Positions 35,765 through 50,951 of a stretch of DNA of 64,000 bases are shown here, piece by piece. This stretch comes from a virus: IMG/VR virus record IMGVR_UViG_3300042508_000428; one strand, written 5' to 3'. A program made the translations under genes and the position numbers. Under the pieces are notes generated by a model. The model worked only from the letters and a program-made list of their open reading frames with translations, was not told where the DNA came from and made no database searches. Numbering within the stretch: the stretch's first letter is position 1; every line of letters starts with the position of its first letter.

Positions 35765-36123
35765 GGGTCTGAAATGGTATCGATCGGGTAGAGTTTTATG
35801 ATTATGCAGGACGATGGGGAGCGAGGCATCGTAAAAACGCTTAAATGTTTAATTGCCAACGACAACGTTGCTTTTGATTACGCCGTAGCGGCTTAAATCA
35901 CGGAGTCTCCAAACACTCTGTAAAATAAGTTTGGATAGGTTGGAATCTTATCGAAAACAAGATTCATCGGCTTTTCTAACTGGTTTTGCCCTGAATAAAT
36001 CAGTATGAAGTCCCTGTAACCCAGGTGTTTTGTCAAGGGTAGGTTGGGTGCTTGACTATTCCTGTGAATGAGTAATCATAAAAACTATGTGAGACGCGGG
36101 TTCGACTCCCGCCAGATCCACCA
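35765..36123 (+). ncRNA. ssrA: tmRNA (one-piece), tag ANDNVAFDYAVAA at 35855-35896
   Basis: GGGTCTG..TGGTATCGA 5' end, GCGGG-TTCGACT-CCCGC T arm, CAGATCC-ACCA 3' end with G3:U, tag ending in AA-stop. Confidence 0.95.
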
Positions 36124-43144: not shown

Positions 43145-43318
43145 AACTTAATAAAGATTAATAGTTCTATTTATTTGATTGTTGAATACTTTATTACTTA
43201 ATAATCATTCTCGATAAAGTAGGCATTTAACTTCCTCAGCATATTCCGCTGAAAGCATATGTGACACTGAAAAAAAAGATCTTTATGCCTCACTTTGTAT
43301 ATGAGGGACTGAAAGCCA

Positions 43319-43976
43319 AACGGCAGACTGAGAGGTCTTGACGCCAGCAAACAGATCGGGTAAGATACCTAAGTCAAAGCGAGAGACCTGCGCGGTTTCT
43401 CGAAACGGCAAACGGCAAACCGGGGAACGCGAGACTGCGAGGTCTTGACAACCGTTCCAAGTTGTGGTAAGCTACTAAGGTCAACGCGGGAAACGGGCTT
43501 CGCGCTCTGAAACCGCAAACGCTCCTTGAAAACCGAGTAGATTCGCAAACGTGATACTGCGAGGGCTTGACAACCGAATCTGGTTGTGGTAGACTACTAA
43601 ACGCGGAATGGTTCCGCAAGGAGGCGAAATGTCGATTACGAATGACGCACTGAAGGGTATTGTTCTTGGTCTGACGATTGCCAAATTGGTTATTCTGCTG
43701 AACGGCTAACTGAACCGAAACGTGAGACCGCGAGGTATTGACAGCGGTTCCGAGTTGTGGTAAGATCCTGACTGTGACGGCGACCTGAGCGGTTGCCGAG
43801 ATTAAGAAACGCGGTACTGAGAAACGCGATACTGCGAGGGCTTGACAACGGTTCGAAGTTGTGGTAAACTCCTGAATGTGAGCGAGCCTGAGCGGTTCGC
43901 GAAACGACGGAGAGAAGCAGAAATCGGAAACGTGATACTGCAAGCTCTTGACAAGCGAATCTACTTGGTGTACAAT
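43319..43976 (+). promoter_or_regulatory. Array of six tandem sigma70 promoters, each with a conserved 19-nt upstream element
   Basis: TTGAC(A/G) at 43338, 43445, 43567, 43738, 43842, 43948, all N17 to TAAGAT/TAAGCT/TAGACT/TAAGAT/TAAACT/TACAAT. Confidence 0.9.
43629..43709 (+). CDS. 26-aa hydrophobic peptide MSITNDALKGIVLGLTIAKLVILLNG
   Basis: AGGAGG RBS 4-5 nt upstream, directly downstream of promoter P3. Confidence 0.6.
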   Translation: MSITNDALKGIVLGLTIAKLVILLNG

Positions 43977-43988
43977 CCCTAAGTCGGC

Positions 43989-44038
43989 GGTGAGCTTCGC
44001 GTTCACCCACTCCGCATCGGATCTTTGATAACTGAATA
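43989..44038 (+). promoter_or_regulatory. boxB-like hairpin plus rrn-type boxA-like antitermination element
   Basis: GGTGA-GCTTCGCGT-TCACC then GATCTTTGATAACTGAATA. Confidence 0.65.
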
Positions 44039-44166
44039 ACGATTGCGAGCACAGAGTTGCTCTGCAAAGATGATGGACTGCCGTGGTCTGCGAAGTCACG
44101 AGACCTTCCACATCGCAATCAAGACGACACGCAATAAGTGCGTGACGTAGAGTGAGTACGATTAAT

Positions 44167-44240
44167 CCGCCTTTAGCTCAGTTGGATAGAGCATCTGCCT
44201 TCTAAGCAGAGGGTCGCAAGTTCGAGTCTTGCAAGGCGGG
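44167..44240 (+). tRNA. tRNA-Arg(TCT), CCA not encoded
   Basis: TCTGC-CTTCTAA-GCAGA; CCGCCTT/AAGGCGG. Confidence 0.93.
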
Positions 44241-44282
44241 CCGAGTAAGTGTGAAGCAAACCCCTAACCATGCGAGGTTACA

Positions 44283-45098
44283 ATGAGCACGAACACCAAG
44301 ATCGGAAATTTCCTCTACACGAACGCTGACTTGCCGTTCTATTCGCAAGTCCTGTCGATCCTGAACGAAAACCCCAAGGGTGCGTCGTTCATCACTGTTG
44401 CGGGTAAACCGCAAATCATGTCGCAGTTCAACAACGATGTTGCTCGTTCGCAACAGAAGGTCAAGTCGATCCTGTCGAGTCTGCGTATGCGTTCGGTTAT
44501 CTTTGAGACTCAGCAACCCGGAAGTTCGTTCTCGGTTTACAAGATTGCGGATAAGGATGTGGCCTTGACGCTAATCTCTGAGGGTGGTAAGATTGTTGAA
44601 AGGTTGGTGCAGCGTACCGCTGACTGCGCTAATACTGAAAAGGTTTCGGCGGTTGTTTCCAATATCAATACCAATACCAAGAAGGTGAATACCATGGCTA
44701 CCAAGACTGCTACCAAGAAGGCTCCTCGTTTGTTCGTTAACCCTGAGACCAGCAAGGTTGAGCCGTTTGGCGCTGGTCGTCCGTCCAAGGCAAAGTTGGC
44801 GTTCGAGTGCAACGCCGATGGTCAGTATCTCAATCCGCAGGCGGCGCTTGCGTTCGCTCAACAGGGTGGCAAGTCGGAAGATAAGCTGACCAAGGCTGAG
44901 TTGCTCGATCTGCTCCGTAAGGTTCGCGCCGAGCGTGACGAGGCAATCGCCGCTCGCGACACTCTCGCCGGTGTCCTCGGTTCGCTGAATACCGCTTCGG
45001 TTGACGCTGAAGCGGATTCGGATGACGGCGATGACCTCGATCTCGATGCTGAGTCGGTCGATGCCGATGACGAGATTGAGGCGACCGACGCCGAGTAG
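44283..45098 (+). CDS. Early protein with GRP (AT-hook-like) motif, coiled coil and highly acidic tail
   Basis: GAGG RBS; strongly biased GC-richer codon use; tail DAEADSDDGDDLDLDAESVDADDEIEATDAE. Confidence 0.8.
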   Translation: MSTNTKIGNFLYTNADLPFYSQVLSILNENPKGASFITVAGKPQIMSQFNNDVARSQQKVKSILSSLRMRSVIFETQQPGSSFSVYKIADKDVALTLISEGGKIVERLVQRTADCANTEKVSAVVSNINTNTKKVNTMATKTATKKAPRLFVNPETSKVEPFGAGRPSKAKLAFECNADGQYLNPQAALAFAQQGGKSEDKLTKAELLDLLRKVRAERDEAIAARDTLAGVLGSLNTASVDAEADSDDGDDLDLDAESVDADDEIEATDAE

Positions 45099-45104
45099 TC
45101 AAAC

Positions 45105-45386
45105 GGTGGCTTGCGATAGACCCCAAACAGAATGGGGTTCAATCAACGGTTTCCCGCTGTAGGGAAATGCAGTTGGACGCAAGCCACCATTCGCGGTGTG
45201 GTTCCACCGATTGGAAGTGAACCCATCCCGCTGTGGTTGAACAGCACAGCAGGCGACGGTTACGCCGATTGGAAGCTAACCCATCCAACCGTGGATGACA
45301 AGCACGGCTACTTGCACAATCGTCTAAATGGAAAGTGCGCGTGAATATACGCGTGATGCGGGTTCGACTCCCGCTTGTGCAAGCCA
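45105..45386 (+). ncRNA. Putative multi-domain ncRNA with two CGATTGGAA-loop hairpins and a 3' tRNA-like domain
   Basis: 11-bp stem 45105-15/45178-88; repeated hairpins; T arm GCGGG-TTCGACT-CCCGC; 6-nt anticodon loop. Confidence 0.7.
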
Positions 45387-45408
45387 ATCAATAGACAGAG
45401 GTTTCACA

Positions 45409-45954
45409 ATGCTGTTCTGTTTCATTCACAAAGATACCAAGCGGTTCAAACAGTTCTGGATTGAACAGGTAAACCTTAGCGAAAGCATTTACGAATCCGA
45501 AAACCCCAGCGATGTTGCGTTGGTTCGCAAAGTTCAACAAGAAAATGCAAGGCTATTTGATAATCAGGTAAGGGAGTTGCTTCAGCGTGGTTGGGTTCGC
45601 CCATAACACCCAATCAATAGACGGAGGTTCCATATGTTTGATGCAAGCAAGATGACGATTGCTGAGGTTATGCAAAAGGCGCAGGAACACATGATCGCCC
45701 TGCGACAGGAAATCGAAGAGACGGAAGTCAAGTGTAACGATATTAGTGATCGTTGTATGGAACTTGACGATATGGAAAATCGCGATGATGGCGAACTCCA
45801 ACGAATGGACATTCGTCGGTGGGTTATGAACGGCAAACTGGATGACCTCAACGATCAACTGGCCGATACACATCGGGTTGTCGAAATCTTCAGCAAGGTG
45901 GTTTACAATACATCGAATATTCAAGATGTCATCGACGCCATTCGCTCTGTGTAG
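45409..45954 (+). other. Two small early ORFs (45409-45606; 45634-45954 coiled coil)
   Basis: GAGG/GGAGG RBSs. Confidence 0.7.
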
Positions 45955-45970
45955 TGAATAGGTGTTCAAT

Positions 45971-46046
45971 TTCCCGATAGCTCAGTTGGTAGAGCGAGTG
46001 ACTGTTAATCACTTTGTCGTGTGTTCGATTCACACTCGGGGAGCCA
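45971..46046 (+). tRNA. tRNA-Asn(GTT)
   Basis: AGTGA-CTGTTAA-TCACT, GCCA end. Confidence 0.95.
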
Positions 46047-46057
46047 AACGAATAAAT

Positions 46058-46133
46058 GGATCAGTAGCTCAGTCGGTAGAGCAGCGGACTCTTAATCCGT
46101 AGGTCGTGGGTTCGATCCCCTCCTGATCCACCA
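46058..46133 (+). tRNA. tRNA-Lys(CTT)
   Basis: GCGGA-CTCTTAA-TCCGT, ACCA end. Confidence 0.95.
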
Positions 46134-46227
46134 GATACGAATAAACAATAGACGGAGGGAACAAATGATCGTTATTGATTGGCAACTTCGTTCTTGGATC
46201 TACGACGAAAGTTTCTGGGACTAACAA

Positions 46228-46455
46228 ATGCAGGAGGTCATCATGTATGATGTTCACACGAATGAAGAACTGATTGATTTTCATAACAAGCATGATCCTT
46301 TGTTCGCTAGACTGCTACGGGAAACTGAAGTAGAAAAGGACGAGAACAAGTTTCAGATTGGTGTTGCCCTTGTGTCTCTCGTTCTGTCGGGCAAGGTAAA
46401 AATCATTCAGAGTCCACAGGGCGAACTTCTATTCGAGCACCAACTCCCCAACTGA
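46228..46455 (+). CDS. Small hypothetical early protein (true start may be the second Met)
   Basis: GGAGG RBS. Confidence 0.6.
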   Translation: MQEVIMYDVHTNEELIDFHNKHDPLFARLLRETEVEKDENKFQIGVALVSLVLSGKVKIIQSPQGELLFEHQLPN

Positions 46456-46655
46456 TTGAGGTAAATGATGGATGCAACTAAAGTGGTGAAGCAGATCAAG
46501 GACAAGGTTCGTGAAACAGTTGTTCAGGAAAAGGAAGACTGGACTAAAGCGGTTTCTGAATACAAGAAAAGGCAGGAACTTCTAGCGAAGTCGCAAGAGC
46601 AAAGAGTCATTGGTTTCAAGTGGTAGGAACAAACGGGACTAACAATCCCACAATC

Positions 46656-46727
46656 GGCCTTGTCGTCCAAAGGTTAGGACGAGAGACTTTCAATCTCTAA
46701 ATCCGGGTTCGAGTCCCGGCAAGGTCA
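46656..46727 (+). tRNA. tRNA-Glu(TTC), CCA not encoded
   Basis: AGAGA-CTTTCAA-TCTCT; GGCCTTG/CAAGGTC. Confidence 0.92.
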
Positions 46728-46765
46728 CCGATAATGAATAAACAATAGACCGAGCGGAGATACGA

Positions 46766-47356
46766 ATGGATGTTTACACAGAGGCAGAACTGAGAGAGTC
46801 GTTTGCAGACTTCAAGGACTATGCACTGAAAATTGAGAAACGAAACAAGAGGCTTGGATTGAAAAGCCGATTGCCCAACATGCCAGAGGAAGTTAGCGAA
46901 AACATCGCCAAGTTTATCGTTCAGAATCATATGAATGATCAGACTGCGTTGTGGCCCAAGGGCACGAAGGGAAAGGTCAAACTTCCAGGCGATCTCCGTT
47001 CAGATTCATTCGGCAGGCTGGAAGTCAAGTGTTTCACTTCAACTGGCCCGATCTCATTCGGTCCAACCGAAGCATGGGATACGCTACTGTTCCTTGATGC
47101 AACAGATTGGCGGAATGATCGTTTCGTTATGTATGGTGTTTCGCTTGCAAACAATGACCCGCTATGGGAAGCCGTGCAGATTAGCAAGAAGCAAACGTAT
47201 GGCGATCAATGCAAAGCTCAACGTCGCCCACGCATTGGATGGGGTGCGCTGAGTCCACAGATCACATCCAACTGCACAAAGGTATTTGATGGAACGTTTG
47301 ATGAAGTGTTTGTGAATATTCAGCAGACTCAACAGGGGCATAGTTCAGTTGGTTAG
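46766..47356 (+). CDS. Type II restriction endonuclease, R.Bsp6I-like (probable GCNGC)
   Basis: SRLPNMPEEVSE, GD..LEVK PD-(D/E)xK core, SFGP..WDTLLFL, QTYGDQ..RRP, all paralleling R.Bsp6I motifs as recalled. Confidence 0.75.
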   Translation: MDVYTEAELRESFADFKDYALKIEKRNKRLGLKSRLPNMPEEVSENIAKFIVQNHMNDQTALWPKGTKGKVKLPGDLRSDSFGRLEVKCFTSTGPISFGPTEAWDTLLFLDATDWRNDRFVMYGVSLANNDPLWEAVQISKKQTYGDQCKAQRRPRIGWGALSPQITSNCTKVFDGTFDEVFVNIQQTQQGHSSVG

Positions 47357-47410
47357 AGCATCGCTCTGATAAGGCGAAAGTCGGTGGTTCAAGTCCACCT
47401 GCCCCTACCA
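47334..47410 (+). tRNA. tRNA-Ile(GAT)
   Basis: TCGC-TCTGATAAG-GCGA arm, AGGGGCA/TGCCCCT, ACCA; overlaps the last codons of the endonuclease ORF. Confidence 0.92.
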
Positions 47411-47662
47411 CACACGAAGGAGACAACATGACGTTCAAATTGAAAGTGCCGACCTACAATAAAGTAATCACACATTTCAGCGGTGGCTTGGTTCATCGAA
47501 CAGTATCCAGCCGTTACAGTCCAAAGTGGGTTTGGTTCATTCAATAGACTGCGGGAGGATAGAATGGATTGGTTGCTTGTGATCGGAGTCACTTTCGTTT
47601 GGGCTTCCTTCACTCTTTATATGTCCGAGAAAGAATAAACACCTAAACAGATAGGACGAACA

Positions 47663-47758
47663 ATGAATACCTCTCAACTGCTTCTGCTTATGCTTTCCAT
47701 CCTTCCGCTCACCATGTCCATTGGTTTGGTGGCAACGAAGGTTGAGAATCGAGCTTGA
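47663..47758 (+). CDS. 31-aa hydrophobic peptide MNTSQLLLLMLSILPLTMSIGLVATKVENRA
   Basis: AGGA RBS; single TM helix. Confidence 0.5.
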   Translation: MNTSQLLLLMLSILPLTMSIGLVATKVENRA

Positions 47759-47795
47759 CAGAAATCGTGGGACTTGCTATAATCATTCCCACGAT
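47755..47795 (+). promoter_or_regulatory. sigma70-type promoter with 9-bp inverted repeat around the -10
   Basis: TTGACA-N17-TATAAT; ATCGTGGGA/TCCCACGAT. Confidence 0.85.
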
Positions 47796-47796
47796 C

Positions 47797-47873
47797 GCTA
47801 GGGCAACCACGAACCCAATGGTATTAGGCATGAACCCGATTGGAATGTACGGTTCTGTAAGTCCTGCCCTAGC
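47797..47873 (+). ncRNA. Small structured RNA with a third CGATTGGAA loop
   Basis: GCTAGGGCA/TGCCCTAGC closing stem; GAACC-CGATTGGAATGTAC-GGTTC. Confidence 0.55.
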
Positions 47874-47879
47874 ACATTC

Positions 47880-47957
47880 GCCAGCATAGCTTAATTGGAA
47901 TAGAGCCAATCCTTGGTATGGATTGTGATGGTGGTTCGAGTCCACCTGCTGGCACCA
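47880..47957 (+). tRNA. tRNA-Thr(GGT)
   Basis: AATCC-TTGGTAT-GGATT, GCCAGCA/TGCTGGC, ACCA. Confidence 0.9.
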
Positions 47958-47981
47958 CGAACAATCGTGAATGGGGGAAAC

Positions 47982-48992
47982 ATGAATGGAAATGATCTAA
48001 TCGAGTTGTTTGAATATGCATATGATTACTGCGAGGACAACGACTATGATCCATCCGTTGATGTTTCACGTTCAAACGATGATGAGATCGGTTTCGATTA
48101 TTCAGATACTCTTGACCACCTGTGGGCAGGATAGATAAACGGAGATAGCGAATGTCTTTCTATACAATGTATGCCCTATGTGTGCTGATTACGACTTGCT
48201 ACGTCGCGATTGATCTATCAGAGAATACGAAGGATTATTCGCAATACAAAGCAAGGGATAAACTCTTTGCCATTTCTGTTCTCGGTCTATTCTGGCCCGT
48301 GCTATTCGTTGGGGTTGTGGTTGGCTTTCTATACAGCGCAATCAAATCATTAAACGGAGGTGTCAAATGATCGCATGGATGCGCCGTCATATCGAACAAT
48401 ACAAGTTCCTTGCGGAAGCAAGAGGACAGCATTACGATCGTTTGTATATTGATCAGAATGGTAAGCTATGTCGCGAACATCTATTCGTGGAAGAAGAAGG
48501 GTGGAACGACGACCAGTATCCCTATGACATTGATGACGATGAAGAATGGGACTACTCCGATGAAATGGAAGACGGAAGCCTATAACGAATAGATGAACCA
48601 TAACAACCAATCGGGAGGAATAAACATGGCACTGGAAGATAAGAAGAGTTTGTATTTGATCCTTGACCTAGCACGTTACCTTGCGGATAGAGAAAGAGCA
48701 AACACTAGAATGAATGAGGGTGAGTTTTCAATGGCAGAGAACATTGCAAGACACACACTCAATCTACTGAGGGAGGAACAATCGCATGACTAGGAACGAA
48801 CTCATTCTCATTATCGGTCTCAGCATTGTTGTATTCATTCCCATGGGATGGATGGCATACCACATGCACAAACTAAACCAGTGGGTAGAGAAAGTAGATA
48901 AGCAATCAGTCCTGCTGGATAAACGAGTAACCTATCCCTATCCAAAGACACCAGAACCACCTAGACCAAAGAAGAAGTCAGAGGGTAAGTAA
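47982..48992 (+). other. Five small early ORFs (47982-48134, 48152-48370 membrane, 48367-48585, 48593-48793, 48786-48992 membrane)
   Basis: RBS-preceded, coupled ORFs. Confidence 0.6.
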
Positions 48993-49791
48993 ATGGTGTT
49001 AGATAGATTGCACTATCACATACATTCACACATGGTATACGAATAGGTAATCAGTAGATAGCAGGGGAGATAGAGAAGCCTAAACGATGCTGTTAAATAA
49101 TCGTGGTAGGAGAGAATAGATAATGGGCAGGAAATGGATGACCAGTGAACCAGCCAAATACACTATCCCGACCTGTTGACAACCATCGTTAAATGCGTTA
49201 TTATGCATGTGGTACTGCTCCCCTGCTGGATTACATAGCAACACTCCTCTACCACGGGTAGGTGAACAGCATAGGCGGAGGCACCCAAACAGTGGGTATG
49301 GACTAGACCCCTGGATCTGTATTATCAAGCATGACCCCTCCGCCATAGGGTATCACACTTCATCTATTCAGTCAAGGGTAGATTATGGGTGGACAACGAT
49401 TACGTTTCTTTCTAACACCCAGCGAAAGTTGAATACCTCAGGGCACAACGCATTATATAACAAACGGTTAAGGTTGTCAACCAAACGTGTGATAAGGTTC
49501 TATCAGCGCCTAGCGAAATGTTAATCAACCCTGTTTAAACATTGCAGACCAGCATAAGGAATATTCATTTCGATTAAATGATTAATGAATAAACGTTTAA
49601 CAGCAAAGCATTGCAGCAAAGTCAAACATCGTTCAGGGCACAAACAATGCCCCCTCCCCCTCCCCCTTCTAAACCGAATGGAAACCGGAATTTATGTTTC
49701 AAGGCGCAGTATCGCGAATAAACGGTTTGCTTGACCCTCTTTCAACGCGCCTATAATTTTCCCAGATTTGAACTTTTTTGTCAAGTCTCAC

Positions 49792-50421: not shown

Positions 50422-50951
50422 TGAAACAAATTTTAACAGAGTGGAGAAAGTATGTCAATGAGGAATTAACGGATGTGGTCGTTCCGGAGGAACAAAAATA
50501 TCCAAGATTTCCAGGATTCGACATAAACAAAGTTGATTTTAAAATTAAGTTTGGAAAGTTAAGAGACTTATTGGTAGATGATAAAAAGATAAAAAAATTA
50601 AGAGTTCCAAGTTGGTCTTTGCAAACAGATGCATATTTAAATCCTGGAGAAAATGATATTGCTGCGGTTGCATATGATGGAGATCGACCTGTTGCAATTG
50701 CTGCTATAACACAGGATAAGTATAGTCCATATGGTTTGATAAATGTATATGTAGATTCTTGGTATCGTGGTCTTGATTTGGCAAGCAAAGTTATTGATAA
50801 AGCATTGGAAAATTCTGGACATTGGAAAAAACTTGTTGCTTCAAGAGTTCCTGTTAAAATGTTAAAAAAGCGCGGTTATGAAACAACCGATAATTATTGT
50901 AATTATGTTGATTGTGAGGTTTTTAGAAACAAGAACTATAAAAAAATATAA
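50421..50951 (+). CDS. GNAT-like acetyltransferase with W-tag
   Basis: INVYVDSWYRGLDLASKVI resembles GNAT motif A. Confidence 0.65.
   Translation: MKQILTEWRKYVNEELTDVVVPEEQKYPRFPGFDINKVDFKIKFGKLRDLLVDDKKIKKLRVPSWSLQTDAYLNPGENDIAAVAYDGDRPVAIAAITQDKYSPYGLINVYVDSWYRGLDLASKVIDKALENSGHWKKLVASRVPVKMLKKRGYETTDNYCNYVDCEVFRNKNYKKI

Follow-up and report, generated by a model that had tools for sequence, protein, structure and literature searches.

Tandem promoters for early transcription are textbook biology, the standard examples being the A1-A3 promoters of phage T7 and the P1/P2 promoters of rrn operons. The T7 early promoters are not known to share an upstream box or to be followed by a repeated leader hairpin. 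In T7, entry into the cell begins with a stretch of ~1 kb that contains three host promoters, and the rest of the genome is drawn in by transcription (PMC3737178). A second kind of early promoter unit is found in the PeSL cassettes of T4-type phages, repeated composite motifs that combine a consensus sigma70 early promoter with a stem-loop (PMC2839356, PMC4122927).

Here we describe a phage locus that combines elements of several of these systems and most closely recalls the E. coli rrn control region. The likenesses to rrn are that strong tandem sigma70 promoters, here predicted ones, are accompanied by extra conserved DNA immediately upstream of the -35 element, that a boxA-like word comes after a leader hairpin, and that most of what lies downstream is genes for untranslated stable RNAs (tRNAs). 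However, rrn has two promoters (P1/P2), whereas the phage array has four to six; the rrn upstream element is an A/T-rich UP element with Fis sites, whereas the phage box is G+C-rich and lineage-specific; and the hairpin of this phage-encoded system, unlike the rrn boxB-boxA-boxC leader, has a conserved pentaloop and is repeated behind internal promoters.

The other systems resemble the locus in fewer respects. Like the phage array, T7 A1, A2, and A3 are tandem strong promoters for host RNA polymerase that head an early region, but they lie in the first-entering DNA, whereas the phage array is internal to a fragment. The PeSL cassettes share with the phage units the joining of a sigma70 promoter to a stem-loop in a repeated unit. 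However, PeSLs are dispersed and flank ORFans, whereas the phage units are in tandem; the region upstream of the PeSL promoter is A/T-rich, whereas the phage units carry a G+C-rich box; and the G/C-tract stem-loops of PeSLs are terminators in varied positions, whereas the phage hairpin lacks a U-tract and belongs to the transcribed leader. Comparison of these features with the published description (PMC2839356) therefore places the phage units, with their tandem arrangement, G+C-rich upstream sequence, and lack of a U-tract, outside the PeSL class. The nut sites of lambdoid phages likewise have a promoter-proximal hairpin with a conserved 5-nucleotide (nt) loop and a boxA-like word, but boxA lies 5' of boxB in nut, whereas the phage order is hairpin and then boxA, as in rrn; the boxB pentaloop of nut is GNRA-like and bound by N, whereas the phage loops are mostly UGAGC and not GNRA-like; and most of the phage hairpins, unlike nut sites, have no adjacent boxA. 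Among the ORFs scanned, we found no N homologue or N-like protein, and the reversed order, the non-GNRA loops, and the absence of an N-type protein from these ORFs led us to reject a lambdoid nut site. The leader hairpin, the boxA-like leader, and the conservation of the arrays in related phages are new here, the hairpin and the boxA-like leader having been missed in a first-pass annotation of this DNA.

Results

An early/tRNA block and its relatives

The window, by which we mean the whole 64,000-nt stretch of DNA that was analyzed, comes from a virus record of 77,468 bp that is estimated to be 37% complete and has no known terminus. The record encodes a DnaE-like polymerase, GroEL, 16 tRNAs, and a tmRNA, and the + strand carries nearly all of the genes of the window. 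Nucleotide and protein searches found no close relative among cultured phages, with GroEL at 43% identity and the DnaE-like polymerase at 29%. The phage-encoded tmRNA (window positions 35765-36123) specifies the tag ANDNVAFDYAVAA, the ending of which resembles alphaproteobacterial tags and might be a clue to the host.

The G+C content is 45-52% at ~43.3-49 kb versus 30-40% in most of the window. Seven tRNA genes lie in this GC-rich block, together with small ORFs that belong to no known family, and the promoter array forms the exact left edge of the block. The sense strand of the block (43300-49000) is G-rich and C-poor (208 G and 151 C in the array). At the right edge of the block, three near-perfect sigma70 promoters on the - strand (49452-49480, 49756-49784, and 50430-50458) are directed back into it, which is unusual in that 32 of the 36 strong promoter matches across the window are on the + strand, that of the genes, versus 4 on the opposite strand. 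Within the block, at 45312-45386, ARAGORN called a tRNA whose anticodon has four bases (aata) and for which it assigned no amino acid (Rfam tRNA score, 37 bits). This could be a frameshift-suppressor-like or a degenerate tRNA; two adjoining direct repeats of 51 nt that are 78% identical lie immediately upstream of it, at 45200-45308. A 245-amino-acid (aa) reverse-strand ORF over the array (43374-44111) was set aside as spurious, being absent from two relatives (G001 and G003) at a locus where the other genes are all on the + strand.

At least 31 kb separates the array from each end of the fragmentary record. Since it is internal to the fragment, the first-pass proposal that it might also drive transcription-coupled DNA entry is without support.

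Relatives were found as follows. GroEL led to three related IMG/VR records, in two of which DNA comparison placed the syntenic region; a protein alignment with the gene for a 271-aa protein downstream of the array led to seven metagenome contigs; and a promoter-plus-hairpin pattern search in IMG/VR gave only G001 and G003 as real matches. They fall into three lineages, which we call A (the window phage and L187), B (G001, L189, and L191), and C (G003). Tandem arrays of 4-6 units occupy the same place in G001, G003, L187, L189, and L191, between the preceding genes and a leader, tRNA-Arg, and the 271-aa protein gene; wherever upstream sequence suffices, 3 to 5 units of the array are visible. 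The 271-aa protein is 40-48% identical between lineages (45-48% for the lineages that share a 14-nt box core, described below). Given arrays in three lineages between which this protein has diverged so far, we consider the multi-promoter design to be old. For comparison, 23 units from six contigs were anchored on the -35 hexamer, and identity was measured by segment.

Predicted promoters of the array

The first-pass annotation had placed -35 hexamers at 43338, 43445, 43567, 43738, 43842, and 43948, all with a 17-bp spacer, and a TGTGG ahead of the -10 element in P2-P5. We verified these coordinates and the TGTGG, which supplies the TG of an extended -10 element. The promoters and the one small ORF considered with them are as follows.

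43338-43366, + strand: P1, TTGACG, 17 bp, TAAGAT
43445-43473, + strand: P2, TTGACA, 17 bp, TAAGCT, with TG; no pentaloop hairpin
43567-43595, + strand: P3, TTGACA, 17 bp, TAGACT, with TG
43629-43709, + strand: hydrophobic ORF of 26 aa behind P3, with a GGAGG ribosome-binding site (43620-43624) and preceded by a small hairpin (43603-43617)
43738-43766, + strand: P4, TTGACA, 17 bp, TAAGAT, with TG
43842-43870, + strand: P5, TTGACA, 17 bp, TAAACT, with TG
43948-43976, + strand: P6, TTGACA, 17 bp, TACAAT, score 11/12

The -35 hexamer is TTGACA in five units and TTGACG in one, the -10 hexamer fits TAnnnT in all six, and the scores are 9-11 of 12, the weakest -10 hexamer being that of P2 (TAAGCT). 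Between 43300 and 44000, there are 6 promoters that score at least 9/12 with a 17-bp spacer versus 0.05 expected (2000 dinucleotide shuffles, maximum 2). Across the 23 units, the -35 hexamer is 94-100% identical, the spacer length is constant at 17 bp, and the -10 hexamer is also kept, while spacer sequence identity between lineages drops to 0.36-0.43. Because the hexamers and the spacer length are almost invariant while the spacer sequence diverges, we conclude on comparative grounds that the six units are very probably real, strong promoters for host sigma70. It is from the multiplicity of these promoters only that we infer a possible capture of RNA polymerase by the array, as first proposed.

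The spacers of P2-P6 contain an inverted repeat of 4-6 bp (window positions 43451-43467 in P2 and the equivalent positions in P3-P6), which reads ACAAC...GTTGT in P2-P5 and CAAG...CTTG, a compensatory variant, in P6. It is confined to the lineage of the window and is missing from lineages B and C.

Successive units are spaced 107, 122, 171, 104, and 106 nt apart, the long 171-nt unit being accounted for by the 26-aa ORF and the small hairpin behind P3. The stretch of this ORF covered by L187 is nucleotide-identical, and the ORF is missing from lineages B and C. Most of the linkers between units contain no ORF. They are purine-rich and C-poor, with repeated AAACG words, and the AAAC(G/C)G words to which the first-pass annotation drew attention are indeed enriched (7 versus 0.5 expected) but unevenly distributed, 6 of them falling in the interval from P1 to P3.

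A box abutting each -35 element

Immediately upstream of each -35 hexamer, in fixed register and with no indels, is a 19-nt box; all six copies read exactly as they had been quoted.

43319-43337, + strand: box 1, the most degenerate copy, 3 mismatches
43426-43444, + strand: box 2, abutting P2
43548-43566, + strand: box 3, abutting P3
43719-43737, + strand: box 4, abutting P4
43823-43841, + strand: box 5, abutting P5
43929-43947, + strand: box 6, abutting P6, 2 mismatches

The additional partial copy that had been reported is also real and lies at 43808-43822 (+ strand), immediately upstream of box 5. The box pattern has 6 matches in the window versus 0.29 expected, a number reached in 0 of 100 shuffles, and the rest of the 77-kb record contains no copy. 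A search of IMG/VR with the box plus -35 pattern gave 30 single hits, all of which proved upon inspection to be chance matches.

Segment identities set the box apart from its surroundings. Within the window phage, identity is 0.78-0.85 in the box, 0.56 in the spacer, and 0.33 farther upstream; in lineage B, it is 0.63-0.67 in the box versus 0.40 in the spacer; and in lineage C, it is 0.74 in the core versus 0.59 in the spacer. Lineages A and B are 0.53-0.56 identical in the 14-nt core adjoining the -35 element, compared with 0.38-0.40 in the spacer and 0.31 in the upstream sequence. The box is better conserved than the spacer in all three lineages, yet its sequence is lineage-specific. Furthermore, paralogous units within a genome have uniform boxes, whereas their hairpin stems, at a distance of ~40 nt, vary freely from unit to unit, a combination that fits a single genome-specific factor reading all of the boxes. 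These comparisons suggest that the box is probably functional, and we read it as a lineage-specific operator.

We also considered that the box might be an RNA polymerase contact element, an unconventional UP-like element or extended -35 element read by the alpha C-terminal domain or sigma region 4, which would increase recruitment without a dedicated regulator. The box fills the exact position of an UP element (-36 to -54) in fixed register, the bases adjoining the -35 element are the part most common to the lineages, and the sequence at the box position in lineage C is A-rich and UP-like, so that it could work without a dedicated factor. However, UP elements are A/T tracts, whereas the box is ~58% G+C in the window phage and lineage B, in agreement with the first-pass view that it is not an A/T-tract UP element, and none of the ~25 other consensus-grade same-strand promoters of the phage has a box. 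The first-pass annotation had suggested searching host genomes for the box upstream of rrn or other promoters; the box-core plus -35 pattern, used as an exact degenerate pattern, had 2 hits in 185,579 species genomes. This is the chance level, and it therefore lends no support to a motif of host rrn or other host promoters and argues against a common host promoter feature. We think polymerase contact unlikely, if still worth weighing.

A second alternative is that the box has no function of its own and hitchhikes in a cassette that is spread or homogenized by unequal crossing-over or gene conversion. Units of the same genome resemble each other more than they resemble units of other genomes, and the lineage C units are nearly identical along their whole length, indicating recent duplication. 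In the window phage, divergence is greatest in the edge units (P1 and P6), and there is the partial extra copy at 43808-43822; it is on the strength of these degenerate edge boxes and the partial copy that we think concerted evolution probably contributes to the uniformity of the boxes within a genome, and unequal crossing-over in a tandem array also yields first and last boxes that are the most degenerate. Nevertheless, simple homogenization of the cassette fits less well, because in each of the three lineages conservation is lower in the spacer, which would lie in the middle of a conversion tract, than in the box. Moreover, P6 retains 17 of 19 box positions despite a diverged spacer, and the 14-nt core keeps its cross-lineage identity although the adjacent protein is only 45-48% identical. 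Hitchhiking as the whole explanation is, in our estimation, quite unlikely.

We regard as very unlikely a third alternative, that the box is the site of a host transcription factor, through which the phage would read a host signal or titrate the factor (an operator sponge). Multiple identical sites in a noncoding early region would suit such a role, but the strict pattern found no host genome with repeated copies, no known operator consensus was recognized by eye (the candidates included those of CRP, Fis, IHF, sigma-E, and sigma-54, none of which gave a convincing match to the box), and the box differs among closely related phage lineages from similar samples. The reading of the box as a lineage-specific operator for a phage protein is the one that we carry forward.

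Hairpins in the leaders

Behind P1, P4, P5, and P6, at about +8 (5-10 nt past the expected start), the sequence can form a hairpin of 7-9 bp with a conserved 5-nt loop.

43380-43402, + strand: P1 leader hairpin, 9-bp stem, loop UGCGC
43778-43798, + strand: P4 leader hairpin, 8-bp stem, loop UGAGC; one compensatory G-C to A-U change in L187
43882-43900, + strand: P5 leader hairpin, 7-bp stem, loop UGAGC
43989-44007, + strand: P6 leader hairpin, 7-bp stem, loop UUCGC; a compensatory U-A to C-G change in L187

Across units, the loop is most often UGAGC, the others being UGCGC, UAAGC, CAAGC, and UUCGC, and the 7-bp stem core of the P5 hairpin recurs in lineage B, in unit 2 of G001 (loop UGAGC) and unit 1 of L191 (loop UGCGC). 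When twelve hairpins were aligned on their loops, 89.8% of the cells were paired, a fraction that is biased because a stem finder had chosen the sequences, although the hairpins can be recognized independently of pairing by their common loop and their constant distance from the promoter; control partners slid by 1-3 columns were paired in only 26-46% of cells. Both sides change in 7 of the 9 pairs, and the covariation score is 0.77 versus 0.28 in shuffles, with 0 of 500 reaching 0.77. A covariance model found the hairpin solely behind array promoters in 194 kb of phage and relatives. We conclude from these patterns of substitution that the hairpin is maintained by compensatory changes. The loop is common to all lineages and the box is not, which suggests that whatever reads the hairpin would be conserved and whatever reads the box would not.

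These hairpins raise the alternative that the units are mini-genes for short hairpin RNAs, in which the box would be read through as RNA and the product would act as an abundant decoy or an N/boxB-like signal. The loop conserved in all lineages, the covarying stems, the purine-rich linkers with their repeated AAACG words, and the lack of ORFs between most units would all be consistent with this. However, no U-tract or terminator follows any of the pentaloop hairpins, the fixed register of box and -35 element points to a function at the DNA level, box 1 would escape transcription from the array, and an Rfam search of 42.5-50 kb at a permissive threshold returned tRNAs only, with no match in the array. 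Such mini-genes are highly improbable, and we retain the reading of the box as an operator and of the hairpin as a leader element.

The head of the proposed tRNA operon and its first protein

The array leads into a leader, a tRNA gene, and the gene for the 271-aa protein.

43521-43531, + strand: boxA-like word behind P2, 2 mismatches to GYTCTTTAANA
44020-44030, + strand: boxA-like word behind P6, 2 mismatches to GYTCTTTAANA, followed by a structured leader and then tRNA
44167-44242, + strand: tRNA-Arg (TCT), first gene of the operon, syntenic in all relatives
44283-45098, + strand: gene for the 271-aa protein; the operon's first ORF, in synteny with all arrays found

GYTCTTTAANA is the gammaproteobacterial boxA consensus (PMC5725501). 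The number of mismatches to it is 1 in G001, L189, and L187 and 3 in G003, the consensus being a gammaproteobacterial one that may not be that of the host. In each lineage, the last promoter is followed by a different hairpin and then by the boxA-like word. The leader (44020-44166) is structured and purine-rich, with counterparts in L096 (4816-5090, - strand) and L097 (7860-8060, - strand); its sequence is well conserved inside lineage B, and the arrangement is kept in all lineages. The order found in rrn, in which a hairpin (here at 43989-44007) is followed by a boxA-like word and stable RNA genes, is therefore present in all lineages. There is no intrinsic terminator on the + strand from 43.3 to about 48.2 kb. 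Given multiple strong promoters, a boxA-like leader, stable RNA genes, and purine-rich, C-poor linkers, we read the array as the start of an rrn-like early/tRNA operon of ~5.5 kb that is served by several promoters.

In the 271-aa protein, a predicted PadR/MarR-like winged helix at the N terminus, with its recognition helix at about residues 53-69, is followed by a long helix, a GRPSK motif that is invariant in the family, a DKLTKAELL helix, and an acidic tail. Neither Pfam nor PHROGs yielded a match for it or for the neighboring small ORFs. In the AlphaFold model, residues 1-110 have block pLDDT values of 82-95, and residues 13-119 align with PadR, MarR, and ArsR regulators with Z scores of 9.5-10.1 (rmsd, 2.3-3.4 Å over 95-99 residues). 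Almost all of the top-ranked structure matches are winged-helix DNA-binding proteins; the Foldseek match is marginal (E value, about 1e-3). A T4 RegA-like translational repressor was considered and rejected, its ESM Atlas score of 0.85 being within noise and the fold missing from the top 50 of the structure search. The family comprises about 50 unannotated clusters in metagenomes, and two homologues, P0012 and P0034, are encoded on long metagenome contigs (173 kb and 181 kb).

On the basis of its adjacency to the array and its predicted fold, we propose the 271-aa protein as a candidate box-binding regulator. PadR/MarR dimers usually bind dyads; by eye, the box has no clear palindrome and only a weak dyad. 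The notion, put forward in the first-pass annotation, that an activator or repressor acts on the array is reasonable in so far as it posits a trans-acting regulator, since the box is more conserved than the spacer and is not an A/T-rich UP element, but an activator is disfavored. The promoters are intrinsically strong and a factor on the box would be bound directly against the -35 element, both of which make a repressor the likelier of the two. It is barely credible that the boxes are instead iterons, to which the adjacent protein would bind at a replication origin or packaging site, for although 19-nt direct repeats do adjoin a winged-helix gene, they are irregularly spaced at 104-171 bp and each is tied to a promoter, the cumulative GC skew climbs steadily across the array with no inflection, and the 271-aa protein has one winged helix, whereas Rep initiators have two.

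Discussion

We propose that the array is the head of an rrn-like early operon, in which iterated cassettes carry a box that serves as a lineage-specific operator, and we assign this model as a whole a probability of roughly 0.4. The array would consist of four to six iterated cassettes, each made up of the 19-bp box, a strong sigma70 promoter, and the pentaloop leader hairpin, and the last cassette would lead through the boxA-like leader into tRNA-Arg, further tRNAs, and small early genes. Host RNA polymerase would fire from all of the promoters, placing many polymerases on a largely untranslated, tRNA-rich transcript, and the boxA-like leader would recruit Nus factors that shield this transcript from Rho. 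The box would be bound by a lineage-specific DNA-binding protein, for which the best candidate is the winged-helix protein from the operon's first ORF. Because the promoters should need no activator, this protein would most likely switch the array off after the early phase, in an instance of negative autoregulation.

A more far-reaching version, which we offer as a doubtful proposition, is that the cassette is a previously undescribed phage module. In such a module, the box would allow a phage protein to gate all four to six promoters at once, and a conserved second factor would read the hairpin loop, either within an antitermination complex or through titration of a host RNA-binding protein, so that the whole would form a self-contained launch pad for the phage tRNA operon.

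What distinguishes the locus is the cassette as a whole, in which a lineage-specific box, a predicted promoter, and a covarying hairpin are iterated 4-6 times, are kept across diverged phages, and head a tRNA operon with an rrn-style boxA leader. The candidate regulator also brings into view a protein family of ~50 clusters without any annotation. Should the adjacent winged-helix protein prove to use the box as its operator, the pair would be a simple, portable switch for very strong promoters, and the operon would illustrate clearly how a phage can copy the logic of the host rRNA operon for stable RNAs.
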